The notes beneath the pieces were generated by a model. That model saw only the letters and a list, made by a program, of their open reading frames with translations, was not told the origin of the DNA and searched no databases. 64,000 nt of DNA, taken from Escherichia phage EP1. This document shows positions 18,116 through 53,780 of this stretch, one piece after another. Where the stretch lies: sequence record OR892555.1. The stretch is one strand, 5' to 3'. Position 1 is the first letter of the stretch. Each line of letters begins with the position of its first letter. The translations under genes were made by a program, and so were the position numbers.

Positions 18116-19012
18116 ATGTCACAAGCAGATGTAAGCTACAAAAATATCCTGAACCATGTTTTAACAGTTGGTGAGCAGCGTAAAACCCGAACTGGTTCTG
18201 TAATTTCAACGTTCTCACCTCCAGAGTTTCGTTTTGATATGCGTACTGGTTTCCCTTTACTGACCTCTAAACAGGTTCTGACAAGACAAGTTATCGGGGA
18301 AGCTTTATGGTTCTTGAACGGTGAGAATAAACTTGGTCATCTTCGCTATCGTACTTGGGGAGAAAACGATGGGGAACGTTGGACAATCTGGACAAATGAC
18401 TTTGAACGCTGGCTTAAAACAACATATGCAAGCGAGCAAGACTGGTTAGAGGATGCAGGTGGACGAATCTACGGTGTTCAGTGGAGAGCCTCAGAAGGTC
18501 ATGGTGGCGTTACAGTTGACCAGTTAGACAATCTGATTACCAAGATGAAAAAGTCTCCTACAGACCGTTACATGCTGGTTAACGCTTGGAATGCTGCTGA
18601 TATCTCAGCTAATGCAATGGCTTTACCACCTTGTCATGTGCTTTTCCAGATTTACATCTCGAATACTGGTGAAGTGGATTTAAAATGGTATCAACGTTCT
18701 GTAGACAGTTTCTTAGGTTTGCCATTTAACATTGCGTCTTATGGTTTCATCTTAGAAGTGCTTTGCAAGATGACTGGCTATACACCTCGTTATCTGATTG
18801 GTACTTTTGGTGACACTCAGATTTATCAGAACCATATGAGTCAGGTATTCCAGCTTTTAGGTAATGAAGAGTTTCCTGCACCGAAGTTTGAGATTGTTCA
18901 AGATTTGAAATGTCTGGATGACCTAAAACATATGACTGCAAGTGACTTTATCGGTGGTTTCAAAGACTATCGACATGCAGGGAAGATTGAAGCTCCCTTG
19001 TCAGTAGGTTGA
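18116..19012 (+). CDS. thyA: thymidylate synthase
   Basis: Active-site region ALPPCHVLFQIY and YQRSVDSFLGLPFNIASY are ThyA signatures. Confidence 0.85.
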   Translation: MSQADVSYKNILNHVLTVGEQRKTRTGSVISTFSPPEFRFDMRTGFPLLTSKQVLTRQVIGEALWFLNGENKLGHLRYRTWGENDGERWTIWTNDFERWLKTTYASEQDWLEDAGGRIYGVQWRASEGHGGVTVDQLDNLITKMKKSPTDRYMLVNAWNAADISANAMALPPCHVLFQIYISNTGEVDLKWYQRSVDSFLGLPFNIASYGFILEVLCKMTGYTPRYLIGTFGDTQIYQNHMSQVFQLLGNEEFPAPKFEIVQDLKCLDDLKHMTASDFIGGFKDYRHAGKIEAPLSVG

Positions 19013-19021
19013 TAGATACAA

Positions 19022-19050
19022 AAAAGGCTCCTTTTTACGGGAGCCTTAAA
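19022..19050. terminator. bidirectional terminator hairpin between convergent genes
   Basis: GGCTCC-loop-GGAGCC hairpin; T-run on the minus-strand side, weaker on the plus side. Confidence 0.5.
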
Positions 19051-19051
19051 C

Positions 19052-19426
19052 TTATTTTTTCTTAGCATTTTGAGTGTTCTGTTCAGTGATTGCTTGCAAA
19101 GCTGATACAGATTGTGCTAGGTTGTTAACACTGTCAGAGAATTTATCAAGGGTCTTGGTCAACTTGGCGTTTTCACCCTTTACGTTCTCTAGCTGAACCT
19201 TCTGGTTCTCCATGCCTAATTGCAGGAGTTTCATGTCAGACTGTAAATCACGAATAGCTGAATAGTTGCTTTTGTTGTAACTATCTAGCTGCTGTAACTT
19301 TGTCGAAACGGAAACTTCCTGCTTCCCACTAGACACCTGCATTGTAGTGTACATACCAATTACACTGAAGATACCCACAACAATTGCACCAATGTTATTT
19401 TTGAAAGCATCCTCTAACCACTTCAT
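19052..19426 (-). CDS. membrane-anchored coiled-coil protein (124 aa)
   Basis: N-terminal TM segment IGAIVVGIFSVIGMY followed by long coiled coil. Confidence 0.4.
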   Translation of the reverse strand: MKWLEDAFKNNIGAIVVGIFSVIGMYTTMQVSSGKQEVSVSTKLQQLDSYNKSNYSAIRDLQSDMKLLQLGMENQKVQLENVKGENAKLTKTLDKFSDSVNNLAQSVSALQAITEQNTQNAKKK

Positions 19427-19620
19427 TCTTTCTCCCCTTTAAAGGCTTTTTCCAAGTTATTAACAAATTCATCATCAATAGGCGTATCTGTCTTACTCGC
19501 AAGGTATCTTGCAAGTCTGAAGAAGGCTTTCTCAATCATGTATTCACTCAGAAGGGAAAGTAGAAGTTTCCAGAGGAAGCTACCCAAGTTTTTTAAGAGG
19601 ATTACTAGGATAGTCGGCAT
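19423..19620 (-). CDS. small hydrophobic protein (65 aa)
   Basis: ORF track; hydrophobic N-terminus ILVILLKNLGSFLWKLLLSLL; ATGA overlap with downstream gene. Confidence 0.35.
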   Translation of the reverse strand: MPTILVILLKNLGSFLWKLLLSLLSEYMIEKAFFRLARYLASKTDTPIDDEFVNNLEKAFKGEKE

Positions 19621-19699: not shown

Positions 19700-22237
19700 T
19701 TACGCCGTTCTAACCCATGCCATCAATCTGATAAACAAGTTTACAACACTGAATGCTGAACCAGAACCTGTACCACCAGTGTCACCACTAACTGTGTGGG
19801 TGTGAGCACCAATACCAACCGTGTGAGCGTGGTTACCAGCAGAAGCAGCAGTACCAGAGATTGTGTGGGTGTGAGCACCACCTGCATCAGTGTAACCTGG
19901 CCCTGTACCAAGCTTACCACCACCACCACCAGAGTAGTGAGTAGAGTTCTGACCAATCCATGAGATAGCATGTTTGTGACTACCAGCAGATGCAGCAGAA
20001 CCACTTACAGAGTGGGTATGAGCACCAGTCGTGTTAGAGGTCTTAGTACCATAGTCAAAGCTTGACGTTGTAGCTGAGAAGCTGTGAGTATGTGAAGGAA
20101 GGTGTCCTACAGCTAATGTCACAGTATCTGCACCACCAACTGTCTTAACATCTGAACCATTCGCTGCACCGATTCTGACAGTTCTACCGACACCTTCATT
20201 TAGATACGTCCAAGTTAATCCCGGAAGGGTAGTATTAGGGTTCTGGTTAGTTGCAAACCATGTTACAATACCTACAGGGTAAACTTTCTTAAGGTCTGTA
20301 GAGTCTGTAACAGCATTTGCAATCTTCTGGTCAACTTCAGTTTTAGTATATGCACCAACATCTGATGCTGAAGGTTTTAACAAGCTTGTGTAAATAGACT
20401 GGACACTACCAGAAACCATGCTAGTTGGTGGTGTTACAGAACCTTCAGGTGTTGTATACATAGATACTGCGGCATTTGAAGTGCATCTCCAACTAAAGCT
20501 AATACTGTGTGCATAACCACCAGATTTAGCGTAGATATCATAACTATTGCTACCATTCGAAACATAACCAATATCAGTAAACAATGGACTAGTGTCAGTA
20601 CTATTCCAAAGAACTGCCGTGATACCAACAGGTGTAGAGTTGTTTCCAGTCCTTAAAATAATACTAGTAGGCGCGGCTTGTGCTGTTGAGCCAGCATTAT
20701 AACCAGCACCACCTGCAAACCTCATTTCTACAGTTGATGTACTCTGTGGCATAACTACGGTTGCCACCTTAACCCATAAACCATTAGTACCTGAGCTATT
20801 TGGACTAATAGACCCAATCATTTCATATCTTAAGTCTGATAAACTTTTTGTATAATATCTTGAATCAAAGTTTGCAAAGTCTGAAGGTTTCACCTGTCCA
20901 GTGATATTCACACTTTTATTGGCGACAATCTCATTAGCAAGCTGCAAAGAACTACCAAGTATGTGGTTTTGCAATGACAGAGTTGTTGAACCATCTGAGC
21001 CAACACCAATAAACCACCTGTTAGTAGTACCATCTGAGTCTCTTGAGATGATATAAGAGGCTTTACCTGCACTGCTTGGCATTAATACTAGACCCTGACC
21101 ATCATTCTTAATGGTCTGTACACCAGTAAAGGTGTTTGCAGTATTGTTCCTTGCAATTGTAGAAAGTGTTGCAGCAGGAATAAATCTGGCATCAATGTTA
21201 GACCAATCTGTAGGCTGAACCTGTCCAGTGATTGCAAGACTCTTGTTAACTCTGACCATGTTATCAAGTAATACATAGGTATCATTTGAGATGTTTGTCA
21301 ATACAACTGAGTTGCTACCATCTGCATAGTTACCTACAGCCCACTTCATAGAAGCATCTGTGTTCTGACCTTCAATGTAAAGTGCTTTACCACTTGTCAA
21401 GTTCTTCAGAGTTAATCTTGCACCATCACCAAGTAACGTTGTAGTACCTCTGAGGGTGTTGTTTCCAGTAATCGTGTTAGCTGCTGCCAACTGAACAAAT
21501 CTTTGGTCTGCTGCATCACGAGTATAGAATCTTGCATCAAAGTTTGCGAAGTCTGAAGGAACAACCTGTCCAGTAACTTGAAGACTTTTGTTAATACCTA
21601 CAGAACCAGTACCAAGAACAATATTAGTATTCTGTTTGGTGTTTGCAATAGTAACGTCAGAACCAGAACTCAAGTTACCAATTGTGAACCTTACAGCGTT
21701 TGCTGTATCACGACCTTCATAATACAATGCAGCCGCAGCAGTGTTCTTCAAAGTCAAACCAGCATTATCTGTCTGGAAAATCTGACTTGCTGTAAAGGTA
21801 TTTTGAGTTCCCTTGATAGCAAATCTTGCATCGTTCTCATCATTAGTTCTCATCCCAAGTTCATTGGGAGATGGCTTATTCAGAGTGTGATAAACAGTTG
21901 CACTTCTTGAAGCATCTGCAATAGTCAGTTTAAGACCATTTGCATTAAGCTTGAAAGTTTTTGCAGTGTCACCGAAGACAATTTCGGAGTTACCTGTTGG
22001 GTCAAGTAAATCTTTTCCCCCATAGGTAAGCTTTACAATTCCTAAATTACCTGTCATGGTTCCACCAACTAATTGCAGAAATCTTTCCAGTCTAAATGAT
22101 GCAAGGAAATCCGCATAAGTCATTCTACGGTCTTCATCACCTAGCATCTCAGTTCTTTTCTTAACTCTGACATGCAATAGGTCATCAGAACGAATCTCAC
22201 TAATCGAGTTTAATTCACTCAATTTAAATTCTGCCAT
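19700..22237 (-). CDS. tail fiber protein with tail-collar-like domain and His-rich C-terminal repeats
   Basis: Three internal repeats NKSL.ITGQV.PSDF.NFD.R.YT; tail-collar-like VYPVGIVTWFATN...LPGLTWTYL; C-terminal GAHTHS/GSHKHA/GAHTHT His boxes. Confidence 0.7.
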   Translation of the reverse strand: MAEFKLSELNSISEIRSDDLLHVRVKKRTEMLGDEDRRMTYADFLASFRLERFLQLVGGTMTGNLGIVKLTYGGKDLLDPTGNSEIVFGDTAKTFKLNANGLKLTIADASRSATVYHTLNKPSPNELGMRTNDENDARFAIKGTQNTFTASQIFQTDNAGLTLKNTAAAALYYEGRDTANAVRFTIGNLSSGSDVTIANTKQNTNIVLGTGSVGINKSLQVTGQVVPSDFANFDARFYTRDAADQRFVQLAAANTITGNNTLRGTTTLLGDGARLTLKNLTSGKALYIEGQNTDASMKWAVGNYADGSNSVVLTNISNDTYVLLDNMVRVNKSLAITGQVQPTDWSNIDARFIPAATLSTIARNNTANTFTGVQTIKNDGQGLVLMPSSAGKASYIISRDSDGTTNRWFIGVGSDGSTTLSLQNHILGSSLQLANEIVANKSVNITGQVKPSDFANFDSRYYTKSLSDLRYEMIGSISPNSSGTNGLWVKVATVVMPQSTSTVEMRFAGGAGYNAGSTAQAAPTSIILRTGNNSTPVGITAVLWNSTDTSPLFTDIGYVSNGSNSYDIYAKSGGYAHSISFSWRCTSNAAVSMYTTPEGSVTPPTSMVSGSVQSIYTSLLKPSASDVGAYTKTEVDQKIANAVTDSTDLKKVYPVGIVTWFATNQNPNTTLPGLTWTYLNEGVGRTVRIGAANGSDVKTVGGADTVTLAVGHLPSHTHSFSATTSSFDYGTKTSNTTGAHTHSVSGSAASAGSHKHAISWIGQNSTHYSGGGGGKLGTGPGYTDAGGAHTHTISGTAASAGNHAHTVGIGAHTHTVSGDTGGTGSGSAFSVVNLFIRLMAWVRTA

Positions 22238-42974: not shown

Positions 42975-43195
42975 TGTATTTCTCCAAAATAATAAGTGAA
43001 TGGCTCTCCTGAAAAAAGACGGTGCAGAGACCGTCAAGGAGAAACCACAATGTATGCCAGAGACATACTGTATAAGTCTTCTTATAAAGTATACATCTGT
43101 AAAAAAGCCCTGTCTAAAAATACTCTTCGGTAGCGAAAGGAAGAATACTCGTAGCAGGGCGTTATTATTTTATTTTGAGAGAGAGTAAAATAATT

Positions 43196-43271
43196 TGGAG
43201 CGTCGAAAGGGAGTCGAACCCTCATAATCCTGTTTTGCAGACAGGTACATAGCCATTTCTGTCATCGACGC
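43196..43271 (-). tRNA. tRNA-Cys (anticodon GCA)
   Basis: Acceptor halves 43200-43206/43265-43271 pair; T-arm AAGGG-AGTCGAA-CCCTC (reverse-complement view); anticodon loop CUGCAAA; CCA encoded. Confidence 0.7.
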
Positions 43272-43277
43272 ATTAAT

Positions 43278-43369
43278 TGGAGGAAGATACCAGACTTGAA
43301 CTGGTACGCCGATTTCTCGGTTACTGACAGTTTAGCAAACTGTCCCCTTACCTTTAGGGTTAATCTTCC
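43278..43369 (-). tRNA. tRNA-Ser (anticodon GCU), long variable arm
   Basis: 92 nt; acceptor GGAAGAT/ATCTTCC; anticodon stem ACAGT/ACTGT with loop UUGCUAA. Confidence 0.7.
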
Positions 43370-43371
43370 AA

Positions 43372-44103
43372 TTATTTATTCAAGGCATCCTTCATTTCTG
43401 GAGTTGCAATTGAATCAATCACGCCAGATTTACAGGAATCATCAAACCAGTCTGGTAAGATACCTGCAAGGAAACCATTAATATTTGTTTTCAAGTAATC
43501 AGCAATCAAAGCCGCTTCATCTGCAATCATCTGAGCCACTTCATTAGCATAGGCAGTAATCTTTGCCATACCATCATTAATCGCTGTAACAGCTTGTGTA
43601 GCGAGGTCAGAGATGGTTGCTAGTCCTTTATCAATTGCATCCTGTAAGTCGCTTAGAACGCTGTTTACGGCATCTATAGAGGTATTAATCAAATCCATAG
43701 CCTTGTTACCGTATTCAGTAGCAACTCCCATGATTCCACTAAACGGTGTACAACCAACTTGTTCACCTGCTGCTCCCATAACATTAGAGTAACCTTTAGC
43801 TACTTGCATACGTTGTGAAAACTCATCTACAGACTTCTGTCCATATTGAGTCAGTGTGTTAGTTGTCGTTGTAGTGCTTCCAAGGCTAGTTGAGAAGCTA
43901 CTTAACAAGGCTGTAGTCAAACCAGCAGCAATAAGTTTATCTTTTACTGTAGGGTCTGATACCGAGCTAATAGAGCTTACTAATGAAGTAGAAGCGGCAA
44001 CTGTACCACCAAGAACTGCTGCACCAGTAATAAGAGGGTTAGAGAACCCGTTACCGGATTTAAGGAGACTGAAAATCTCTTTACCTTGTCCTGTCATCTC
44101 TTT
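43372..44103 (-). CDS. Ser/Thr/Ala-rich protein embedded in the tRNA array
   Basis: ORF trimmed to MKEMTGQ so it does not overlap the adjacent tRNA; low-complexity S/T-rich centre. Confidence 0.4.
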   Translation of the reverse strand, partial: KEMTGQGKEIFSLLKSGNGFSNPLITGAAVLGGTVAASTSLVSSISSVSDPTVKDKLIAAGLTTALLSSFSTSLGSTTTTTNTLTQYGQKSVDEFSQRMQVAKGYSNVMGAAGEQVGCTPFSGIMGVATEYGNKAMDLINTSIDAVNSVLSDLQDAIDKGLATISDLATQAVTAINDGMAKITAYANEVAQMIADEAALIADYLKTNINGFLAGILPDWFDDSCKSGVIDSIATPEMKDALNK

Positions 44104-44122
44104 CATTATGCACCTATAAAAT

Positions 44123-44199
44123 TGGTAGCCCATCGGGATTTGAACCCTGTTCTCATGTTTTTCAGACACGCGCTTTAACCATATAAGCTAATTGAGCTA
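44123..44199 (-). tRNA. tRNA, tentative Phe (anticodon GAA), atypical T-stem and acceptor/D-arm linker
   Basis: T-loop ATTTGAA with 3-bp GGG/CCC stem; anticodon loop CUGAAAA; acceptor TAGCTCA/TGGGCTA pairs with one G-U. Confidence 0.45.
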
Positions 44200-44206
44200 T
44201 TAAAAT

Positions 44207-44283
44207 TGGGGTGACCTACGGGAATCGAACCCGTATAGACCATGTTCACAGCATGGGTCATTATCCATTTATGATAAGGCCAC
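44207..44283 (-). tRNA. tRNA-His (anticodon GUG)
   Basis: T-arm ACGGG-AATCGAA-CCCGT; anticodon stem CCATG/CATGG with loop CUGUGAA; D-stem TCAT/ATGA. Confidence 0.7.
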
Positions 44284-44314
44284 ATGTAAGGACTCTCGTA
44301 AGAACCCTTAGAGG

Positions 44315-44390
44315 TGGCAGCAGCGTAAGGATTTGAACCTTAATCTTTCAGCTTCAGAGGCTGGAGCATTGCCAGTTATGCTACACTGCT
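44315..44390 (-). tRNA. tRNA-Gln (anticodon CUG)
   Basis: T-arm TAAGG-ATTTGAA-CCTTA; anticodon loop CUCUGAA; D-stem GCAT/ATGC. Confidence 0.65.
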
Positions 44391-44397
44391 ATTAATT

Positions 44398-44468
44398 TGG
44401 TACTCCATATCGGATTCGAACCGATACATAACACAGATTTTAAGTCTGGCCTCTCTGCCAATTGGAGT
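44398..44468 (-). tRNA. tRNA-like gene, anticodon loop reads UAA (Leu-type) but D-arm appears truncated
   Basis: Perfect T-arm ATCGG-ATTCGAA-CCGAT and 6-bp acceptor; only about 10 nt available for the D-arm. Confidence 0.4.
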
Positions 44469-44478
44469 AATGGAGCAT

Positions 44479-44554
44479 TGGCGGGGGATGTTGGAATTGA
44501 ACCAACTTCTTCGATTTCAAAGACCGAGGTTTTAACCTTGTAAACTAATCCCCT
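44479..44554 (-). tRNA. tRNA-Gln (anticodon UUG)
   Basis: T-arm GTTGG-AATTGAA-CCAAC; anticodon loop CUUUGAA; D-stem GTTT/AAAC. Confidence 0.6.
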
Positions 44555-44562
44555 TTAAATCT

Positions 44563-45120
44563 TTACTTTCTTAGTGGATGAATAAAGAATGCCAACATAA
44601 TTCTTTCCCTTGAGAATGCTCTTTCTTCTGGGACAACACTTTTAAGTTTCCATCCAACATAAATTCTCCAGTAAAACTGTTTACCAAAGACTTTAATTGA
44701 TGGGATAAAAGCGAATAATCCCCAAGCATTCCTATTCCACATCAGGAGATAACCTGTCTGATTATCTTCAGGGTTAGAACTTACGTTGATATTACCTTTC
44801 CACTTAGTAACATCTTTTACATCTCTTCCTAATACATGGTAAGAGAAGTTATAAGCTTTGTTTCTCCAGAGCCACCCAACTCTCTGCATATAAACACCAA
44901 GCTTACCAATCTTTCTAATCTTAGCCCATCGCTCAACGTGACCTTTGTCACCGTCAATTGGGTTATCATAAGTTTCCATCCATCTGAATCCAAAAGGTAG
45001 ATGGCCTTTCTTCTCACTGTAGAATGGAACAACAAAAGGTGCTAAGATTACTGCTAAGATTGCTGCAAATGGCTCTAGCAAAGCTAGGAAAATCCATGAA
45101 GCATACTTCAAATATCTCAT
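44563..45120 (-). CDS. membrane protein embedded in the tRNA array
   Basis: ORF trimmed to MRYLKYAS to avoid tRNA overlap; N-terminal TM segment ASWIFLALLEPFAAILAVILAPFVV. Confidence 0.4.
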   Translation of the reverse strand: MRYLKYASWIFLALLEPFAAILAVILAPFVVPFYSEKKGHLPFGFRWMETYDNPIDGDKGHVERWAKIRKIGKLGVYMQRVGWLWRNKAYNFSYHVLGRDVKDVTKWKGNINVSSNPEDNQTGYLLMWNRNAWGLFAFIPSIKVFGKQFYWRIYVGWKLKSVVPEERAFSRERIMLAFFIHPLRK

Positions 45121-45140
45121 TTTAAATAGCCTCTTTAAAT

Positions 45141-45216
45141 TGGTGCAGAATAAGGGATTCGAACCCCTATTAACAGCTTCGTAGACTGTTGCTCTATCCA
45201 TTTGAACTAATCCTGC
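45141..45216 (-). tRNA. tRNA-Arg (anticodon ACG)
   Basis: T-arm AAGGG-ATTCGAA-CCCCT; anticodon loop CUACGAA. Confidence 0.6.
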
Positions 45217-45330
45217 TTCCCTACGAGAACACCATACAGTTTTTCACAAACTTTGTTTTTACGTCTGTTTAGGTATGACGCTCTAAACTTTTTTGCGATG
45301 GAGTTATTGCTCATAGTGCTCTCCTCAAAT

Positions 45331-45408
45331 TGGTGTTCCAAGACGGATTCGAACCGTCACTAATACAAGGTTTGAGCTTGCATCCTCTGCCAATTGGGAT
45401 ACTGGAAC
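45331..45408 (-). tRNA. tRNA with anticodon CAA (Leu-type) but short variable region
   Basis: Well-formed cloverleaf in reverse complement (acceptor GTTCCAG/TTGGAAC, D-loop AATTGGCAG, T-loop TTCGAAT); anticodon loop CUCAAAC; 78 nt. Confidence 0.55.
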
Positions 45409-45410
45409 AT

Positions 45411-45485
45411 TGGTACTCGCTGAAGGAATTGAACCTTCTTTACCAACTTGTAAGGATGGGGCTTTACCGTATAAACTAAGCGAGT
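45411..45485 (-). tRNA. tRNA-Val (anticodon UAC)
   Basis: Acceptor ACTCGCT/AGCGAGT perfect; T-arm GAAGG-AATTGAA-CCTTC; anticodon loop CUUACAA. Confidence 0.65.
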
Positions 45486-45490
45486 ATGAA

Positions 45491-45578
45491 AAGAGGTCTG
45501 AAGTTGTGCCGCTAACTCAACTCCGTGGAATTTGTTACGGTCTTCAGTTGACTCAAGCGGTCTTTCACTCGACCTCTG
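45491..45578. ncRNA. structured element with acceptor-like terminal stem but no T-loop (candidate small RNA or degenerate tRNA)
   Basis: AGAGGTC (45492-45498) pairs with GACCTCT (45571-45577); internal hairpin CTGAAG...CTTCAG; fills a tRNA-sized gap in the array. Confidence 0.3.
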
Positions 45579-45581
45579 AAA

Positions 45582-45658
45582 TGGTGCTGCTCACAGGACT
45601 CGAACCTGCATTTCCATCCTTACAAGGGATGTGTAATAGCCAATTATACGAAAGCAGC
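45582..45658 (-). tRNA. tRNA-Thr (anticodon UGU)
   Basis: T-arm ACAGG-ACTCGAA-CCTGC; anticodon stem CATCC/GGATG with loop CUUGUAA. Confidence 0.7.
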
Positions 45659-45664
45659 ATTGTT

Positions 45665-45739
45665 TGGAGCATCCAGAGGGAATCGAACCCTCAACCTCAG
45701 TTTGGAAGACTGTAATTTTCCCGTTTAAACTATGGATGC
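45665..45739 (-). tRNA. tRNA-Gly (anticodon UCC)
   Basis: Acceptor GCATCCA/TGGATGC perfect; T-arm GAGGG-AATCGAA-CCCTC; anticodon loop CUUCCAA. Confidence 0.65.
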
Positions 45740-45745
45740 ACTAAT

Positions 45746-45821
45746 TGGTGGAGAAGCAGGGAATTGAACCCTGTACTTAAGTTTGCAAAACTTATGTTTT
45801 AACCATGTAAACTACATCCCC
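45746..45821 (-). tRNA. tRNA-Ala (anticodon UGC)
   Basis: T-arm CAGGG-AATTGAA-CCCTG; anticodon stem TAAGT/ACTTA with loop UUUGCAA. Confidence 0.65.
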
Positions 45822-45827
45822 AATGTT

Positions 45828-45903
45828 TGGTACAGGTGGAGGGAATTGAACCCATCATCTTACTGATTAAGAGTCAGCCGCATAACCATTTTGCTACACC
45901 TGC
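45828..45903 (-). tRNA. tRNA-Lys (anticodon CUU), tentative
   Basis: T-loop AATTGAA with GGG/CCC stem; anticodon loop CUCUUAA; acceptor ACAGGTG/CACCTGC. Confidence 0.55.
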
Positions 45904-45910
45904 ATTAATT

Positions 45911-45988
45911 TGGTAGGAGACAAGGGATTCGAACCCTCAAACACCAACTTCTAAGGATGGTAGGTTTACCAATTACCGTCAATCTCCC
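45911..45988 (-). tRNA. tRNA with anticodon UAG (Leu-type) but short variable region, structure partly unresolved
   Basis: T-arm AAGGG-ATTCGAA-CCCTC; acceptor with two G-U pairs; anticodon loop CUUAGAA; D-loop AATTGGTAA. Confidence 0.45.
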
Positions 45989-46052
45989 ATTAAATCTTTG
46001 TAGAGAACTGCTAAGACGCCAAAGCAACAATGGTATCAAATGCCTTAACAAT

Positions 46053-46080
46053 TCTCTAAAAAGACCTAACTGGTCTTTGC
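46053..46080 (-). terminator. hairpin, possible minus-strand terminator inside the tRNA array (weak)
   Basis: AAAGACC-taact-GGTCTTT stem followed by short U-run on the minus strand. Confidence 0.3.
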
Positions 46081-46229
46081 ATAGTCTTGTTTAATCCGGT
46101 GACTATAACCTTTGGAGAGCTTGATATTATCTCTTCTCCGTGACACCTACTAGGTGCTTTGTTGTGCGTGTACGACAATACACGAGGGAAACCGAACGCT
46201 GTACCAGAGCGTGGGCTTAAATCTCATTA

Positions 46230-46319
46230 GGCGGTAGATAAAGGAGTCGAACCCTCACCGTATCACTACAATGGCAATTGTTTTCAAGACAATTTGGCTT
46301 CCATTAGCCGCTATCTACC
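46230..46319 (-). tRNA. tRNA-Ser (anticodon UGA), long variable arm
   Basis: Acceptor GGTAGAT/ATCTACC; anticodon stem ATTGT/ACAAT with loop CUUGAAA; about 87 nt. Confidence 0.65.
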
Positions 46320-46332
46320 CCTAATAAGACTG

Positions 46333-46737
46333 TTAAACCTCTAACAGTCCTGCATGAACTTTCCTATGACAGTTAGAACACAGTACAACACATTTTCTAA
46401 CTTCTCTCTTAATAGTCCCTCTAGAGTAAGTCTTTAAATTGCTAGGTTCAAAGTCTTTTTCATTTGGGTCTAAATGGTGGAAGTCTAATGCTACTGGTTC
46501 AGATTCACCACAAACTCTGCATTTGCAGATTCTTTTGTATCGGTTAAGAAACTCTCTGTTTCTTTTTCTGTCAGCTACCGCCCTAATTTTCCTTTTAGCT
46601 TTATAAGTTGGGTCTTCTTGATACTTCTTAGAAGAGTATTTGGATTTGCAATCTTTGCATACTGACTGGTATCCATTACCACGCTTATGAAAACAACTTA
46701 AAGGTTTTTCTTGTGAGCATTTTCTACAAAGTTTCAT
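46333..46737 (-). CDS. HNH homing endonuclease inserted in the tRNA array
   Basis: Cys-rich zinc-binding N-terminus; HNH core DFHHLDPNEK ... CSNCHRKVH. Confidence 0.65.
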   Translation of the reverse strand: MKLCRKCSQEKPLSCFHKRGNGYQSVCKDCKSKYSSKKYQEDPTYKAKRKIRAVADRKRNREFLNRYKRICKCRVCGESEPVALDFHHLDPNEKDFEPSNLKTYSRGTIKREVRKCVVLCSNCHRKVHAGLLEV

Positions 46738-46751
46738 ACAAGTACCTATTC

Positions 46752-46822
46752 TGGCAGGGGTGTAGAGATTCGAACTCTAATCAAGAATTTTGGAGACTCT
46801 ATTGCTGCCTTAGCTCACCCCT
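46752..46822 (-). tRNA. tRNA-Trp (anticodon CCA), tentative
   Basis: Acceptor AGGGGTG/CACCCCT perfect; T-arm TAGAG-ATTCGAA-CTCTA; anticodon loop CUCCAAA; short D-arm. Confidence 0.6.
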
Positions 46823-46993
46823 ATTAACACTATAATTCGAAGCTTACCGTATTGTCACAACACTGTCAAGCCTCTTCTCAGATTATTTACATGTTCTGGA
46901 AAACATGAGATACAGACCACCTCCTTATGAAGTTGACTCATCTGAATCAACACGGAGACCCGCTAAGGTCGTCTAAGTAATCTGCTAACTAAT

Positions 46994-47070
46994 TGGCACA
47001 CCCTACAGGGCTCGAACCTGTAACTCAGTGCTTAGAAGGCACTTGCTCTATCCAATTGAACTAAGGGTGC
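46994..47070 (-). tRNA. tRNA-Arg (anticodon UCU)
   Basis: T-arm ACAGG-GCTCGAA-CCTGT; anticodon stem AGTGC/GCACT with loop CUUCUAA. Confidence 0.7.
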
Positions 47071-47320
47071 ATTCTTATCTTTAAAGGCTCTCTTAGAAAA
47101 CCCTTAAAGATGCCCACCTTATTAATCATACCGTGGGCGAGTACGCCAAATTCTTTGATGAGGGGTTGGAAGACCTCACTGGTGTTTAGCCTATTAAGCT
47201 ACTGCCAGAAAAACATTATCGTTTGCATTTATTTTAGTTTGCAAAAATAGACGCTACGCTAACGAAAACTAAGGTTACTATAAAGTGGTCACATCTGAAT
47301 GTCAACAACTTTATCGAATT

Positions 47321-47396
47321 TGGTAGTGGTAGCAGGAATCGAACCTGCGATGTTCGGTTATCAGCCGAGTGTTATGACCGTCTTAACTATACCACC
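47321..47396 (-). tRNA. tRNA-Ile (anticodon GAU)
   Basis: T-arm GCAGG-AATCGAA-CCTGC; anticodon loop CUGAUAA. Confidence 0.6.
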
Positions 47397-47398
47397 AT

Positions 47399-47475
47399 TG
47401 GAGGTTCAGATGGGATTCGAACCCACATTCATAGGGCTTATGAAACCCTTGCATTACCTTATCTGCGACTGAACC
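47399..47475 (-). tRNA. tRNA-Met (anticodon CAU), G-C-rich anticodon stem
   Basis: Acceptor GGTTCAG/CTGAACC perfect; T-arm ATGGG-ATTCGAA-CCCAC; anticodon stem AGGGC/ACCCT with loop UUCAUAA. Confidence 0.65.
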
Positions 47476-47554
47476 ATAATAAGTTGCCCTTTGGAGAAGA
47501 ACTATTGAGTGGGTGTTTCCAGCCGCGCAGGTGTTCTTCAGTTAAGGGCGAATT
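47476..47554. ncRNA. structured element with acceptor-like terminal stem but no T-loop (candidate small RNA)
   Basis: TTGCCCT (about 47484-47490) pairs with AGGGCGA (about 47544-47550); shares a TTCAGTT motif with the element at 45491. Confidence 0.25.
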
Positions 47555-47630
47555 TGGTAGGAGTGGAGGGATTCGAACCCGTCGCCTGTCAGATTAAAAG
47601 TCTGCCGCATCACCATTCTGCTACACTCCC
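47555..47630 (-). tRNA. tRNA-Lys (anticodon UUU)
   Basis: T-loop ATTCGAA with GGG/CCC stem; anticodon stem TCAGA/TCTGC with loop CUUUUAA. Confidence 0.65.
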
Positions 47631-47775
47631 ATTAAATCATCTTTGCAGTAACCTACGCAAACCTTGCTAAAGGGTTTGTAGAGTCATTTCCTATTAAGCT
47701 AATCTAGAATCATGCTAAGGAAATTCATCGGCACTCATGGGACGACATTTAGCTCCATAAGCCACTGCAAAGAGG

Positions 47776-47907
47776 ATTACCAGACCGTTGTTTTATCTTA
47801 AGTGCTCCCATTACACCAACACGCCGTAACGTGTGAAGGAATCGAACCTTCGCCTTTTCTTTACCAGAGAAATAGATTGTTTAATACTTGCTGTAAACGG
47901 TCTTCTG
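47776..47907 (-). ncRNA. tRNA-like RNA lacking a canonical acceptor stem, enclosed by a long-range stem (candidate Y-RNA-like or pseudo-tRNA)
   Basis: Minus strand reads AGACCGTT...[anticodon-like arm TTTCT-CTGGTAA-AGAAA][T-arm GAAGG-TTCGATT-CCTTC][hairpin ACACG-TTACGG-CGTGT]...AACGGTCT; ends pair over 8 bp. Confidence 0.4.
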
Positions 47908-47919
47908 TAAATTTGTTGA

Positions 47920-47993
47920 GCCAGACCAAGTTTTAAATTATTCAAATTAATTGGCTTGAAATTTTTAAGTTGGCTTGCTGAATTTGGTCTTCT
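47920..47993 (-). repeat. hairpin spacer module, copy B1 (CAGAAGACCAA ... TTGGTCTGG)
   Basis: AGACCAA (47922-47928) complementary to TTGGTCT (47983-47989); conserved flanks shared with copies at 47779, 48388, 48544. Confidence 0.5.
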
Positions 47994-48055
47994 GCTCCTT
48001 TAAAGAATACTCGTAAGAACTCTTTAAGGGATGGGCTAAAAAGCCCTCTCAAATT

Positions 48056-48133
48056 TGGCGGTTACGAAGGGATTCGAACCCTCATCATCTCCCGTGACAG
48101 GGGAGTATTTTAACCAGATTAAACTACATAACC
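48056..48133 (-). tRNA. tRNA-Asp (anticodon GUC)
   Basis: T-arm AAGGG-ATTCGAA-CCCTC; anticodon stem CTCCC/GGGAG with loop CUGUCAC. Confidence 0.7.
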
Positions 48134-48139
48134 TTTGTT

Positions 48140-48227
48140 TGGTGCGCCGTGAAGGAGTCGAACCTACCGAGTCATAATGACAAGTGATTTACAGTCACCA
48201 CCGCTTCCATCTACGGGATAACGACGC
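48140..48227 (-). tRNA. tRNA-Tyr (anticodon GUA), long variable arm
   Basis: 88 nt; T-arm GAAGG-AGTCGAA-CCTAC; anticodon loop CUGUAAA. Confidence 0.65.
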
Positions 48228-48297
48228 ATTTTATTCTATTCAGGCTAAGGACTTGCACCTTACAAATCGGTGAGCATTACGCTTCTCTCCCAAATCT

Positions 48298-48374
48298 TGG
48301 CGGTGAGTTAGGGATTCGAACCCTATACCATTCGGTTAACAGCCGACCGCACATGCCTTATGTGCTTCCTCACC
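48298..48374 (-). tRNA. tRNA-Asn (anticodon GUU)
   Basis: T-arm TAGGG-ATTCGAA-CCCTA; anticodon loop CUGUUAA. Confidence 0.7.
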
Positions 48375-48387
48375 ATGTTTAGTATTG

Positions 48388-48449
48388 CCAGACCGTATCT
48401 TTTCATTTTTTCCTATAAAAATTTTGAGATTGCTGTAAACGGTCTTCTG
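48388..48449 (-). repeat. hairpin spacer module, copy A2 (CAGAAGACCGT ... ACGGTCTGG)
   Basis: AGACCGT (48390-48396) complementary to ACGGTCT (48439-48445); lies between tRNA-Asn and the CAU tRNA. Confidence 0.5.
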
Positions 48450-48455
48450 CAAATT

Positions 48456-48532
48456 TGGAGGCGGGTGTTGGAGTCGAACCAACCGTTACCATGCTAATGA
48501 GACATGTGAGACACCCTTTCTCTATACCCGCG
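48456..48532 (-). tRNA. tRNA with anticodon CAU (Met, fMet or Ile-lysidine type)
   Basis: T-arm GTTGG-AGTCGAA-CCAAC; D-stem GAGA/TCTC; anticodon loop CUCAUUA; position 1-72 mismatched. Confidence 0.6.
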
Positions 48533-48543
48533 ATTCTTAATGA

Positions 48544-48607
48544 CCAGACCAAGTTTTATTTTCTATAAGCGAAGAAAGTTTTTTAACTTGCTGAATTTGG
48601 TCTTCTG
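48544..48607 (-). repeat. hairpin spacer module, copy B2 (CAGAAGACCAA ... TTGGTCTGG)
   Basis: AGACCAA (48546-48552) complementary to TTGGTCT (48597-48603). Confidence 0.5.
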
Positions 48608-48614
48608 TCAAATT

Positions 48615-48689
48615 TGGAGTCGTAGACGGGATTCGAACCCGCGAGCAACTGATTGAAGGTCAGGTGGCTAACCATTTGCCTTCTACGAC
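48615..48689 (-). tRNA. tRNA-Glu (anticodon UUC), tentative (C at position 33)
   Basis: Acceptor GTCGTAG/CTACGAC perfect; T-arm ACGGG-ATTCGAA-CCCGC; anticodon loop CCUUCAA. Confidence 0.55.
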
Positions 48690-48696
48690 ATTAATT

Positions 48697-48773
48697 TGGT
48701 CTCCGTTGAGGGAGTTGAACCCTCGACCCCTTGCTCCCAAAGCAAGTGCTCTGCCAAACTGAGCTAAACGGAA
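48697..48773 (-). tRNA. tRNA-Pro (anticodon UGG)
   Basis: T-arm GAGGG-AGTTGAA-CCCTC; anticodon stem CTTGC/GCAAG with loop UUUGGGA. Confidence 0.7.
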
Positions 48774-48940
48774 ATAATTCTTTTCAAACTCTATGTAACC
48801 ACTTTAACATTATTTTTTAGTGGTTGTCAAGAACTTTTTTAAAATATTTTTCAGTATCTTAGAAAAACTCTCGATTTCGTTTTTATGTAGAACATATTAA
48901 AGGGTATCAAACAATTTGTCAATACCCTTTTTAAAACTTT

Positions 48941-50356
48941 TTACCAGATGTAACGGTCAATCATTACTGCTTTGAGCATTACGCTGATTGGGTCAAACTT
49001 CTCACCACCAAGCAGAGCCTTTAAAGTGGCTGGAGAGAAACCTGATACCATCGCTACTCCGTTATCATTTACGGATACTTCGCAGTGACCATTACGGTTT
49101 GCTAAGTACCAGAATACCAGTTGTGGCATCTCATATCCAGCTTTTTCATACTTACTACGAATTACTTCGAAGTTTGTACGACCATTTGCCCCGTCAACCT
49201 GATTAAACTCCATATCAGAGAAGATAATAAGCTTACTTGGCATTGCTGCCTGAGTCAAGTTATTTCTTACACCAATTTCAAGAATACGGTCAAATGCTGC
49301 TTGTAGGTTTGTAGAACCATACTCAACATGACTCATAATCTGACGATGACGATTCTGTAAAGTGCCACTCAGGGTGATAAAGTGAGGTCTGTCTGAGTAA
49401 ATCATTAACTCGTCTTTAAAACAACCTGTATTGCGTTCTGAGACGTATAACGCCAGAGACACACCAATATCAAGAGCGGTTACTGAACCAAATGTTTCCC
49501 AAGTCATAGAGCATGATACATCTGTCATACAAAGGATGTTTTCACCATCAGCCATCCAGTTTGGTAGTGCTTTCCACTGTTCATTAGCAACTTGTGCTTT
49601 ACCACGCTGAACAGATTTAAGAACATCATAAGGGTATACAGCACCAGCATTAATCTTCGTCTCGCCCTTAGATAGAGCTTCAACGTAAGCTGCATAACGT
49701 TCACCATCTTTCTTACTGAACAGTTTTTGATAACGTGCAGCAGCCAGTGAAGGAATCTTACTGTAGTCAATCTCGCCAAAGTTATTTGTAGAGATTTTCT
49801 GTTCAACGGTGTCAGATAAAGCTGACAGCAGTGTACGGTACTCTTTCTCACTCAAGTTTGCAAATTTACAGAAACGTTTTACAAACTGCTTGTGGCGTGG
49901 TTTTACTCGTGGTAACCACTTAGCTGCTAAACATGCTGTATCAGGGTCTAACAAAGCTTCTTCTAAATGCTTGAAAGCATCTGTCTCATAACGAGTACCT
50001 ACGAAGATTTTGAAGTCATCGAAACGACCTAATTCAGAAATCTTATCCATGATACGAAGAACTTGGAAAGAATCCAGAATGTTATCTTCGATTGCTTGTA
50101 AGAGGACAGTTCGGAAAGCTTTACGCTCACCCATACCTTCTCGTACATCTCGCATATGCAGTAAAATACGAACTGCTACATCAACATCCTCACGCAAAGC
50201 TTTGTAGAACAAGTCTGGGAGAATCTCTACATTGTTACGGCTTGAACCAGCAGCTTTGTAGAAGTCTACCAAGGCAGACATTGATGATGTATGGTTAACA
50301 GCACCATTTTCAGTTCGCCCTGCATTGAGGTGCGAATGCTTAAATAAATCGCTCAT
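48941..50356 (-). CDS. Ro60-like protein: helical TROVE-like N-terminal region plus C-terminal vWA domain with MIDAS motif
   Basis: C-terminal MTDVSCSMTWE (DxSxS) ... GSTNLQAAF ... LVFWYLANRNGHCEVSVNDNGVAMVSGFS parallels the Ro60 vWA domain; 471 aa; directly upstream of the tRNA array on the same strand. Confidence 0.6.
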   Translation of the reverse strand: MSDLFKHSHLNAGRTENGAVNHTSSMSALVDFYKAAGSSRNNVEILPDLFYKALREDVDVAVRILLHMRDVREGMGERKAFRTVLLQAIEDNILDSFQVLRIMDKISELGRFDDFKIFVGTRYETDAFKHLEEALLDPDTACLAAKWLPRVKPRHKQFVKRFCKFANLSEKEYRTLLSALSDTVEQKISTNNFGEIDYSKIPSLAAARYQKLFSKKDGERYAAYVEALSKGETKINAGAVYPYDVLKSVQRGKAQVANEQWKALPNWMADGENILCMTDVSCSMTWETFGSVTALDIGVSLALYVSERNTGCFKDELMIYSDRPHFITLSGTLQNRHRQIMSHVEYGSTNLQAAFDRILEIGVRNNLTQAAMPSKLIIFSDMEFNQVDGANGRTNFEVIRSKYEKAGYEMPQLVFWYLANRNGHCEVSVNDNGVAMVSGFSPATLKALLGGEKFDPISVMLKAVMIDRYIW

Positions 50357-50436: not shown

Positions 50437-50808
50437 TTATTTTTTCAGAGCCGCTACAGCAGAGAACGTTGGCTTGTTCTCTTGTGGCTTATCTCCACCT
50501 TTCTCACCCTCTTTCTTAGTATCTGCTGCAATAGCTTTCATCTCACCTGCTGAGTGAGTCATGATAGTTTTGCCAGCTTCCATCATTGACTTCAGGTTTA
50601 CATCATCAGCCGTCAAACCAAACTCTGCAAGTTTTACAGGGTCTCTGGTAACAATTGCCTCAAACAACTTTGCAGCATACTCTGCTGAGTTGTCAATGGT
50701 TAATTGGGCTTTTACAAGAGAACTTTTGTTACGTGAGCCTTTTGGTCTTCCAGATGGGTTACCGGACTGGCCTTTCTTGAATTGGCCTTTGTTTGTACGT
50801 TTTGTCAT
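50437..50808 (-). CDS. hypothetical protein with N-terminal GNPSGRPKG motif (123 aa)
   Basis: ORF track; Gly/Pro/Lys-rich N-terminus. Confidence 0.4.
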   Translation of the reverse strand: MTKRTNKGQFKKGQSGNPSGRPKGSRNKSSLVKAQLTIDNSAEYAAKLFEAIVTRDPVKLAEFGLTADDVNLKSMMEAGKTIMTHSAGEMKAIAADTKKEGEKGGDKPQENKPTFSAVAALKK

Positions 50809-53315: not shown

Positions 53316-53780
53316 ATGCGACTCTCTGATAAGGGGCTTGCAGCAATTAAGTTCTTTGAAGGGCTTCGTCTAGAAGCCTATAAAGACTCTGCTGGAATCC
53401 CAACAATCGGGTACGGTACAATTCGTATTGGTGGTAAACCTGTTACGATGGGTATGAAGATTACTGCTGCACAAGCTGAACAGTATCTGCTTGCAGATGT
53501 TGAAAGCTATGTTGGTGCAGTGAACAAAGCTATCAAGGTTCCAACTTCTCAAAATGAGTTTGATGCTCTCGTTGTAGAAACTTACAACATCGGTATCACA
53601 GCTATGAGAGATTCCACTTTCATCAAGCGTCACAATGCTGGTAACAAAGCTGGCTGTGCTGAAGCTATGCAGTGGTGGAACAAGGTAACGGTCAATGGTA
53701 AGAAAGAAGTTTCTAAGGGTCTGCAAAACAGACGTCGCTTAGAAGCTAAAATTTATCTTGACGCTGTTTATCCTAAATAG
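53316..53780 (+). CDS. endolysin, GH24 lysozyme family (T4 e / P22 gp19-like)
   Basis: N-terminal FEGLRLEAYKDSAGIPTIGYGT catalytic motif region; 154 aa. Confidence 0.75.
   Translation: MRLSDKGLAAIKFFEGLRLEAYKDSAGIPTIGYGTIRIGGKPVTMGMKITAAQAEQYLLADVESYVGAVNKAIKVPTSQNEFDALVVETYNIGITAMRDSTFIKRHNAGNKAGCAEAMQWWNKVTVNGKKEVSKGLQNRRRLEAKIYLDAVYPK

Follow-up and report, generated by a model that had tools for sequence, protein, structure and literature searches.

The DNA analysed here is a window of 64,000 nucleotides (nt) from Escherichia phage EP1 (OR892555.1), in which two open reading frames (ORFs), here termed ORF A and ORF B, lie within an array of transfer RNA (tRNA) genes on the same strand. 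Both are genuine conserved phage genes, orthologues of gp49 and gp48 of phage Felix O1. ORF A (43372-44106, minus strand) encodes a protein of 244 amino acids (aa) and was assigned to the family DUF7217, and ORF B (44563-45120, minus strand) encodes a 185-aa protein of the family DUF7338; the assignments were based on ORF reading, Pfam and PHROG. Most likely, both ORFs would be expressed from a long tRNA precursor transcript. ORF A is probably a minor virion-associated protein, and ORF B may be a membrane protein of lysis control, either holin-like itself or a partner or antagonist of the holin. We consider that this explanation, taken as a whole, has about an even chance of being correct.

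Two conserved genes among tRNAs and their probable expression

Profile searches gave clear matches for both proteins. ORF A was found to match Pfam PF23854 (DUF7217) with an E value of 1e-82 and 277.8 bits (cut-off 29) over residues 8-242, and phrog_2114 with an E value of 2e-106. ORF B matched PF24027 (DUF7338) with 1.6e-61 and 207.6 bits (cut-off 27) over residues 1-184 of 185, and phrog_2143 with 8e-81. About 600 phage records per protein were matched by tblastn, down to 25-28% identity. The ratio of nonsynonymous to synonymous substitution rates (dN/dS, Nei-Gojobori) was determined against Felix-like relatives. It was 0.10-0.13 (about 0.11) for ORF A and 0.02-0.10 (about 0.05) for ORF B, with dS reaching ~1-2 in these comparisons, and such values indicate strong purifying selection on both ORFs. 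In Supplementary Table 1 of the Felix O1 paper, ORF48 is listed as 'CHP; membrane protein' (185 aa, isoelectric point (pI) 10.1) and ORF49 as 'CHP' (244 aa, pI 4.3), both positive in reverse-transcription PCR (RT-PCR; PMC3185647).

The sequence-only reading had described two protein-coding genes on the tRNA strand, which families, homologues and selection confirmed. It had also allowed that they might prove to be chance open frames in tRNA spacer DNA. The longest versions of both ORFs do overlap tRNAs, as would suit such an origin. Against it stand the Pfam matches, homologues in hundreds of phages at identities as low as 25-28%, dN/dS values of 0.02-0.13, a confident fold prediction for ORF B, and RT-PCR and knock-down data on the orthologues. 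Conservation and selection thus refute the chance origin, to which we give practically no weight. Both genes are in fact already known: hundreds of Felix O1-like genomes list them as hypothetical proteins, and Pfam has a DUF entry for each.

Judged by the best nucleotide matches of the region 43150-45450, the window belongs to a Felix O1-like myovirus (Ounavirinae, Suspvirus). This region matched 291 phage records, and the closest were Salmonella phage PC79-13 (97%), Escherichia phages mistaenkt and SUSP1/SUSP2 (~94%) and Felix O1 (88.5%). The orthologues of ORF B, Felix O1 ORF48 (NP_944875) and SUSP1 agp134, share 95-99% protein identity with it; those of ORF A, Felix O1 ORF49 (NP_944879) and SUSP1 agp133, share 82-94%. 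In both phages the orthologues lie between the same tRNAs as in the window (Arg, ORF B, Gln; Phe, ORF A, Ser/Cys) and differ from the window genes by sequence drift only. The two genes have not drifted equally. When the window was compared with Felixounavirus (loci L002 and L006-L026), dS was ~1.0 for ORF A and 0.15-0.38 for ORF B, which lies only 460 nt away. The low dS of ORF B beside ORF A suggests that the ORF B segment has recently undergone recombination or gene conversion.

The starts of both ORFs had to be trimmed, as the sequence-only reading had pointed out. The longest form of ORF A begins at a GTG at 44169 (265 aa) and overlaps tRNA-Phe. The first start clear of this tRNA is the ATG at 44106-44104, which yields 244 aa and is preceded at a distance of 4 nt by a Shine-Dalgarno-like AGGTG (44111-44115, minus strand, read from the sequence). 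The earlier placement at 43372-44103 therefore had the right trimming and the right length, but its end was 3 nt short: translation from 44103 begins with K, not M. The longest form of ORF B begins at an ATG at 45201 (212 aa) and overlaps tRNA-Arg. From the ATG at 45120 it comprises 185 aa plus the stop codon, and a Shine-Dalgarno-like AAGAGG is found 9 nt before this ATG (45130-45135, minus strand, likewise read from the sequence). Here, the earlier coordinates were right and only the length of 186 aa was not. The trimmed starts of both ORFs are those annotated in mistaenkt, Felix O1, VpaE1 and SUSP1.

The array comprises 24 tRNAs (43196-48773, minus strand; called by ARAGORN) and contains both ORFs. 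tRNA-Arg(acg) (45141-45216) precedes ORF B, with 20 nt between its 3′ CCA end and the start codon, and tRNA-Gln(ttg) (44479-44554) begins 8 nt past the ORF B stop codon. Likewise, tRNA-Phe(gaa) (44123-44198) precedes ORF A, with 16 nt between its 3′ CCA end and the start codon, and tRNA-Ser(gct) (43278-43369) begins 2 nt past the ORF A stop codon. All four tRNAs are on the minus strand. The gaps to the flanking tRNAs measure no more than 2-20 nt, so that any separate promoter would need to be placed within a tRNA gene.

Promoter and terminator sites were taken from consensus and pattern matches only. The best sigma-70-like promoter upstream of both ORFs, TTGACA-17-TATAGT (11/12), was located at 47277-47305 on the minus strand and is the counterpart of the 'P45' promoter of Felix O1 (PMC3185647). 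A weaker promoter-like site was found at 46829-46858 (minus strand) and further minus-strand sites at 48922 and 48830. Between 46829 and 43116, the consensus scan yielded no minus-strand promoter-like site. The sole terminator-like match in this interval is weak and lies within ORF A. After the last tRNA (Cys), a stronger terminator-like site, a hairpin with a T-run, was found at 43018-43035 (minus strand) and is the probable end of the tRNA/mRNA transcription unit. As there is no room for a promoter of its own, each ORF mRNA would be released by tRNA-processing cuts, namely RNase E cleavage or 3′ trimming past the upstream CCA and RNase P cleavage at the 5′ end of the downstream tRNA. Translation would proceed from such fragments or from the uncut precursor.

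A similar arrangement is found in the E. coli thrU-tyrU-glyT-thrT-tufB operon and in mitochondrial tRNA punctuation, where a protein gene also abuts same-strand tRNAs without having its own promoter. In these systems, tRNA processing defines the ends of the mRNAs. The window differs in that two mRNAs are concerned, that tRNAs lie on both sides of each and that the array is a 24-tRNA phage array; here, moreover, co-transcription and processing are predicted. ORF A and ORF B are unrelated to each other, and no evidence ties either of them to tRNA biology. In Felix O1, ORFs 45, 46, 48 and 49 were detected together in the 5-min class by RT-PCR (PMC3185647). The proposal of the sequence-only reading that both genes are co-transcribed with the tRNAs is thus plausible in view of the short gaps, the lack of an intervening promoter or convincing terminator and the transcripts seen in Felix O1; co-transcription itself is a step that we infer.

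ORF B and a possible role in lysis control

ORF B has a pI of 10.1 and one strongly hydrophobic segment near its N terminus (residues 9-31). In the AlphaFold (AF2) model (predicted local distance difference test (pLDDT) score 93.9), residues 2-33 form a long N-terminal helix, after which comes a compact alpha/beta domain. Segment and model helix bear out the N-terminal transmembrane (TM) helix that had been noted earlier. The C-terminal domain also has a pI of 10.1 and contains nine Trp; the whole protein is free of Cys. Invariant residues of the family include T50, D52, G57, W83, W85, R86, N87, Y90, R152, G156, W157, K158 and K160. In nearly all homologues the N-terminal flank of the hydrophobic segment carries a net charge of +2, and the C-terminal flank is close to 0 or negative. 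This bias favours an N-in/C-out orientation, a topology that remains a prediction and stands beside a C-terminal domain that is itself very basic. ORF B is therefore inferred to be a single-pass inner-membrane protein with its domain facing the periplasm.

An exhaustive hidden Markov model search collected 836 DUF7338 clusters at 50% identity, nearly all of them single-domain proteins of 160-200 aa. No PDB match to ORF B was obtained by sequence (profile search) or by fold (Foldseek; best E 0.19, TM-scores <0.2), and NCBIfam gave no match. Foldseek against BFVD returned only unnamed family members, one of them labelled 'Envelope protein'. A literature search retrieved no paper on DUF7338, DUF7217 or PF24027. 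Two kinds of apparent evidence were discarded. A few GenBank records label ORF B as 'holin', for which no stated basis was found, and an apparent fusion of DUF7338 to Gp53-like_C (P0033) lies on a 1.2-kb contig and was distrusted.

Gene neighbourhoods were collected from 80 IMG/VR loci (L numbers) and from annotated records, with flanks of up to 6 kb, and scanned for tRNAs. In distant phages, DUF7338 genes were found between tail-fibre and lysis genes. In L059, the order is baseplate, tail fibre, a DUF4376 ORF, DUF7338, an 89-aa TM ORF and Phage_lysozyme. L060 has a 1544-aa tail spike/fibre, a small ORF, a homing endonuclease, another small ORF, DUF7338, GTA_holin_3TM and a GH108 endolysin. 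In L074, tail fibre and tail-fibre assembly protein are followed by DUF7338, GTA_holin_3TM and a GH108 endolysin. A 109-112-aa ORF with two TM segments (2-TM), DUF7338 and Amidase_2 follow each other in L067 and L071; in L068, a 109-aa 2-TM ORF precedes DUF7338 and Amidase_3. DUF7338 is followed by Amidase_2 in L070 and by Phage_lysozyme in L056. In L054, a tail-fibre assembly protein precedes DUF7338, and a holin gene (phrog_198, E 3e-17) starts 4 nt before the DUF7338 stop codon. An apparent DUF7338-holin fusion at this locus was dismissed as an out-of-frame read through high-GC DNA; the two genes merely overlap by 4 nt. Most junctions in these loci are gaps or overlaps of 2-4 nt. The lysis-adjacent DUF7338 proteins form four or five subgroups with 22-37% identity to each other, and they accompany four unrelated endolysin families. 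Beyond these loci, prophage copies in Amantichitinum and in a metagenome-assembled genome of the Selenomonadaceae follow tail-fibre genes, and in phiM9 the gene comes after a short tail-fibre gene.

The order in T4 is gene 37, gene 38 (tail-fibre assembly) and t (holin), so that t, after gene 37 and the assembly gene 38, occupies the same place as DUF7338 in L054, L059 and L074. The T4 holin T also resembles ORF B in having one N-proximal TM helix and a large C-terminal periplasmic domain (predicted for ORF B), with 218 versus 185 aa. In contrast, no sequence homology to T was detected (hhalign probability 0.1; no Pfam holin match at E<=1), ORF B has no PDB fold match, and its gene lies in the tRNA array and not beside a tail fibre. 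T4 RI is a membrane-tethered periplasmic domain that controls the timing of lysis. RI, P2 LysA and PBSX XhlA are all small membrane proteins encoded beside or tied to a holin, which is the context of some distant DUF7338 genes; no homology to DUF7338 was detected, and DUF7338 is larger and has a predicted fold of its own. A third comparison is with Rz-type i-spanins, which share with ORF B the type II inner-membrane topology and the periplasmic domain (both predicted for ORF B) and with distant DUF7338 genes the location in lysis cassettes. These have a coiled coil where the ORF B model has an alpha/beta domain, and among the window ORFs none with a lipobox or lipoprotein character was found within or next to ORF B. 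Furthermore, Felix O1-like phages already possess an overlapped spanin pair (PMC6139136), and a matching pair is found in the window at 19052-19426 and 18967-19068.

The tight linkage of the family to holin and endolysin genes in distant phages favours lysis control over superinfection exclusion. The sequence-only reading had mentioned host-interaction or exclusion factors, which is not the best-supported idea for either gene, as the ORF A family has a member confirmed in virions by mass spectrometry and the ORF B family is linked to holins and endolysins. In such a role, ORF B would keep DNA from entering the cell or would conceal or modify the receptor, in the manner of T4 Imm and Sp, HK97 gp15, T5 Llp or Cor. 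The predicted single-pass membrane topology and the conserved basic, Trp/Tyr-rich domain would suit an exclusion or envelope-modifying factor, as would the recurrence beside tail-fibre and receptor-binding genes, where the exclusion genes llp and cor are also located. In L049-L051, the gene is a lone plus-strand gene among minus-strand genes and looks moron-like, T4-like phages carry it in accessory regions, and in Felix O1 it belongs to the early RT-PCR class (PMC3185647). At least four deeply diverged subgroups, however, are coupled to late tail-fibre, holin and endolysin genes by gaps or overlaps of 2-4 nt, including a position between a 2-TM ORF and an endolysin, which would be unusual for an independently expressed moron. 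Knock-down lowered fitness in single-phage infection, where an exclusion factor should be neutral, and no homology or fold match to known exclusion proteins was found in Pfam, PHROG, NCBIfam or the PDB. An exclusion factor is therefore unlikely, if still to be reckoned with.

The fitness data stem from the CRISPRi-ART screen, in which the knock-down of SUSP1 agp134 was scored 'Semi-Fit' with a fitness of 1.24 (p 0.087, 3 guides; PMC11879866). The score is weakened by the small number of guides and the p value, and the guides bind ~20 nt from tRNA-Arg, so that a polar effect on tRNA maturation could be involved. Several observations weigh against a lysis function. In the clade L075-L083, DUF7338 lies in a baseplate module next to a gp25-like gene, and the neighbours in L049-L051, L062-L065, L072-L073 and phiT5282EW are uninformative or unrelated. 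ORF B itself is far from the window endolysin (53316-53777) and from the spanin-like pair (about 19000-19430). A canonical holin is separately encoded in several lysis-adjacent lineages, and DUF7338 is thus probably not the sole holin there. T4-like phages carrying DUF7338 should already encode holin T, RI and spanins of their own, so that DUF7338 could only be accessory in them; RB16, one such phage, has annotated pseT.2 and pseT.3 genes. Finally, the 5-min RT-PCR class is early for lysis or virion genes, which concerns both Felix O1 ORF48 and ORF49 (PMC3185647). The major capsid gene is in the same class, and this timing is therefore hardly to be trusted. With these points taken into account, the chance that ORF B is lysis-related appears a little short of even on the basis of its sequence and gene context.

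No holin is identifiable in Felix O1-type phages according to both the 2010 Felix O1 paper (PMC3185647) and the 2025 CRISPRi-ART paper (PMC11879866), and spanins were identified in Felix O1-likes as the JH2 family with an 'overlapped' architecture (PMC6139136). The window encodes an 845-aa tail-fibre gene at 19700-22237 (minus strand). Directly after it follows a 65-aa ORF (19423-19620, minus strand) whose N-terminal segment is hydrophobic and whose tail is charged. Next to this are an i-spanin-like ORF with a TM segment and an apparent coiled-coil region (19052-19426, minus strand) and, overlapping it, a 33-aa ORF with a weak lipobox-like motif found by reading (18967-19068, minus strand). 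The ORFs at 18967-19620 look like a partial lysis cassette, and the 65-aa ORF is a plausible holin candidate. With this ORF after the tail fibre, ORF B is not the only holin candidate in the window.

The family is also linked to tRNA genes, a pattern less informative than that of the tail-fibre and lysis genes. Wherever the flanks contained a tRNA, it was located 4-1095 nt upstream of DUF7338 on the same strand, except in the truncated locus L033 and in L059, where the only tRNA is on the opposite strand 2.4 kb downstream. The tRNA-linked genes are those of Ounavirinae, Avunavirus Av-05, several genera of Straboviridae, Otagovirus phiPsa300 and unclassified metagenome contigs. In Felixounavirus and Suspvirus, DUF7338 lies between tRNA-Arg (or Leu) and tRNA-Gln, in L027 (an 84.7-kb contig, ORF B 87% identical) between tRNA-Asp and tRNA-Ser, and in Av-05 between tRNA-Gly and tRNA-Gln. 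Pseudotevenvirus and similar contigs of ~175-180 kb with 1-2 tRNAs have it 600-1100 nt after a tRNA, and Dhakavirus 230-990 nt after tRNA-Arg. It is located inside the array in T4-like-sized contigs (~172 to 183 kb) with 18-19 tRNAs and in phiPsa300 (25% identity). In three metagenome contigs (33% identity), it follows tRNA-Met by 5-7 nt (two contigs) or tRNA-Arg by 251 nt (the third). From cluster and genome sizes we estimated the chance of random placement in or just after a tRNA cluster at roughly 1% for T4-likes and 5-8% for the others, and the repeated linkage is therefore not due to chance. The fitting null is softer than random placement, as tRNA clusters are plastic and rich in homing endonucleases.

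DNA similarity between the window and L027 or Av-05 is confined to ORF B and ~20 nt of leader, and the flanking tRNAs differ. A block transfer of ORF B together with its flanking tRNAs was ruled out on these grounds. Both the confined similarity and the low dS agree with a cassette travelling from one tRNA context to another. In those large virulent phages whose lysis genes are scattered, the DUF7338 gene would have settled just downstream of tRNA genes.

We also considered that ORF B might work with the tRNAs, either in protecting them from tRNA-targeting host defences or in their maturation or use. Its recurrence as a same-strand gene after tRNAs in Ounavirinae, Avunavirus, Straboviridae, Otagovirus and metagenome contigs speaks for such a role, and T4-likes with 1-3 tRNAs keep the gene within ~1.1 kb of them despite differing neighbours. 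The CRISPRi-ART authors speculate that another small ORF of the SUSP1 tRNA region reflects adaptation to tRNA-targeting defences (PMC11879866). On the other hand, most of the distant members of the family (29-38% identity) have no nearby tRNA, and many members lack a tRNA within 6 kb and belong to tail or lysis modules. ORF B is anchored in the membrane with its domain probably on the periplasmic side, and Pfam and PDB fold searches revealed no RNA-related domain. Co-location can also reflect shared early or strong transcription and recombination in clusters rich in accessory genes. A function with tRNAs is thus very improbable.

ORF A as a probable virion-associated protein

ORF A consists to 32% of Ser, Thr and Ala, which agrees with the Ser/Thr/Ala-rich character noted before, and has a pI of 4.4. 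One borderline hydrophobic, Ala/Gly-rich helix was found at residues 25-43. The AlphaFold (AF2) model (pLDDT 80) contains helices only and forms a helical bundle; the N- and C-terminal motifs, although highly conserved, are modelled with low confidence. No meaningful PDB match was obtained by family-profile sequence search and no PDB fold match by Foldseek (no E<0.1, TM-scores <0.35). Profile and structure searches, which had been proposed as a check of the sequence-only reading, thus matched both proteins to DUF and PHROG families, but neither to a PDB fold.

Homologues of DUF7217 occur throughout Ounavirinae and, at ~28% identity, in Ackermannviridae. One of the latter is ORF129 of LIMEstone1 (242 aa, 25.03 kDa), with a Pfam E value of 2.6e-93 to DUF7217 and a BLASTP E value of 3e-27 to ORF A. 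It was listed as a 'confirmed structural protein' on the basis of mass spectrometry with 2 peptides and 18% coverage (Table 2 in PMC3296691). ORF129 and ORF A are of the same Pfam family and of similar length (242 and 244 aa), they align end to end, and a C-terminal Cys-containing motif is common to ORF129 and the ORF A family (LPDWFxDxCK in close relatives of ORF A). They differ in being only 28% identical and in that ORF129 adjoins gp3 and a lipoprotein, not tRNAs or the large terminase (TerL). A putative late promoter is annotated upstream of ORF129, and the tail-completion gene gp3 is two genes away.

The gene order within Ounavirinae points in the same direction. In Erwinia phage Coenus, the DUF7217 homologue is the first coding sequence past the last tRNA, and two small ORFs, TerL and portal come after it. 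Felix O1-like phages have two further tRNAs (Ser, Cys) downstream of ORF A. The order in Coenus makes ORF A positionally the first gene of the packaging/head module in Ounavirinae, and its earlier description as an insert hardly holds in view of the other members of this subfamily. Knock-down of SUSP1 agp133 in the genome-wide dCas13d screen (CRISPRi-ART) was scored 'Not Fit' (-0.12, p 0.46; PMC11879866). ORF A is probably a minor virion-associated protein that is dispensable under laboratory conditions, a conclusion we hold with moderate confidence.

A point against this conclusion is that the virion evidence consists of 2 peptides in one distant homologue of 28% identity. The LIMEstone1 detection could be carry-over, all the more as the same list includes a ligase and PhoH, which are non-structural (PMC3296691). 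ORF A would then be a non-structural or assembly factor, such as a scaffold-like, chaperone-like or membrane-active helical protein. The Felix O1 orthologue does not appear in the stringent shotgun list for the whole phage, VpaE1_047 lacks the structural annotation given to the VpaE1 proteins identified by mass spectrometry, and the 'Not Fit' score of agp133 would suit this alternative as well. So would the borderline hydrophobic helix at residues 25-43 and a sub-threshold likeness to ClyA, XaxB, apolipophorin and IncA-type bundles. Against it, the lead position in the packaging/head module is conserved across Ounavirinae, the Ackermannviridae gene lies beside a tail-completion gene and has an annotated late promoter, and low model confidence at conserved termini is expected of segments that dock to a partner. 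We therefore regard a non-virion role of ORF A as possible, yet rather unlikely.

The 51-kDa structural band of Felix O1 named 'Gp49' was rejected as evidence for ORF A, since ORF49 encodes 244 aa or 25 kDa (PMC3185647). This band was discussed as a possible sheath, and ORF63 encodes a 450-aa 'major structural protein', so the band is probably ORF63. The listing of Gp49 as structural has been widely copied and is probably a numbering slip relative to Supplementary Table 1 (PMC3185647). Similarly, gp215-217 of Sajous1 (Vi01-like) was dropped as a DUF7217 homologue, as the record shows a different locus.

In Ackermannviridae, the DUF7217 homologue is flanked by a SLOG/YAcAr protein and a DUF7424 lipoprotein; no homologue of either was found in the window. 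The gene annotated as 'GTP-binding domain' two genes upstream of the Ackermannviridae homologue is YAcAr/SLOG (L005 4293-4760; L093 5131-5553). Separately, phrog_289 ('GTP-binding domain', profile length 500) matches the C-terminal half of ORF A. SLOG-DUF7217 fusions or a functional link may exist.

The surrounding array and its meaning

Further genes and elements were observed in and around the array. A 134-aa HNH homing-endonuclease ORF is located inside it at 46333-46737 (minus strand; phrog_2255, E 3e-45). Relatives carry HNH genes at differing array positions (two in mistaenkt, three in Felix O1), and this differing placement indicates that homing endonucleases have shaped the array into a mosaic. 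A small ORF (45207-45341, minus strand; 44 aa from a TTG or ~35 aa from an ATG near 45314) between tRNA-Leu(caa) and tRNA-Arg matches phrog_13848 with an E value of 1.4e-15. In SUSP1, the counterpart agp135 has a longer annotation that overlaps tRNA-Arg, and it was scored 'Not Fit' upon knock-down.

An 87-nt spacer between tRNA-Thr and tRNA-Val (45491-45577, minus strand) gave no tRNA call and shares 83% identity with the spacer that follows tRNA-Gly in the unrelated Av-05 (L028 5655-5739); it may represent a tRNA that has decayed or else a non-coding element that is conserved. Most tRNAs of 43196-45408 encode their CCA end, which is directly followed by A(A)TT (CCAATT or CCAAATT), perhaps as a processing signal common to these tRNAs.

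Directly upstream of the array, a 471-aa gene with DUF2828 and DUF7788 is found (48941-50356, minus strand), the Felix O1 orthologue of which bears the RefSeq label 'RNA-binding protein'. Its placement beside 24 tRNAs may be meaningful. The same transcription unit is headed by a 123-aa DUF5681 protein (50437-50808, minus strand), whose SUSP1 orthologue agp130 was among the top-scoring 'Fit' genes in the knock-down screen; a small terminase was not identified in the Felix O1 paper (PMC3185647). Downstream of the array in the direction of transcription are a small ORF, the large terminase and the portal gene.

The linkage of DUF7338 across phage families to tRNA genes on the one hand and to tail-fibre, holin and endolysin genes on the other is undescribed in the searched literature. 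The sequence-only reading had left the function of both genes unknown. More than this can be recovered, as ORF A belongs to a family with a virion member and ORF B to one with a lysis-gene context. The ORF B family is widespread, knock-down of the SUSP1 orthologue lowered fitness, and the neighbourhoods yield a lysis-control hypothesis that is cheap to test. In its strongest form, DUF7338 would be a new class of phage lysis protein, a T-like holin with a single TM domain or a regulator of the holin, that has moved into the tRNA operon in large virulent phages; this form we regard as doubtful. If it were true, lysis control would be wired to the transcription and processing of a tRNA operon in Felix O1-like and T4-like phages, Av-05 and Otagovirus, and DUF7338 would possibly be the missing lysis piece of Ounavirinae. 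Since the family is found directly after tRNA genes again and again in unrelated phages, it is also possible that phage tRNA arrays regularly express genes through tRNA-punctuated mRNAs.

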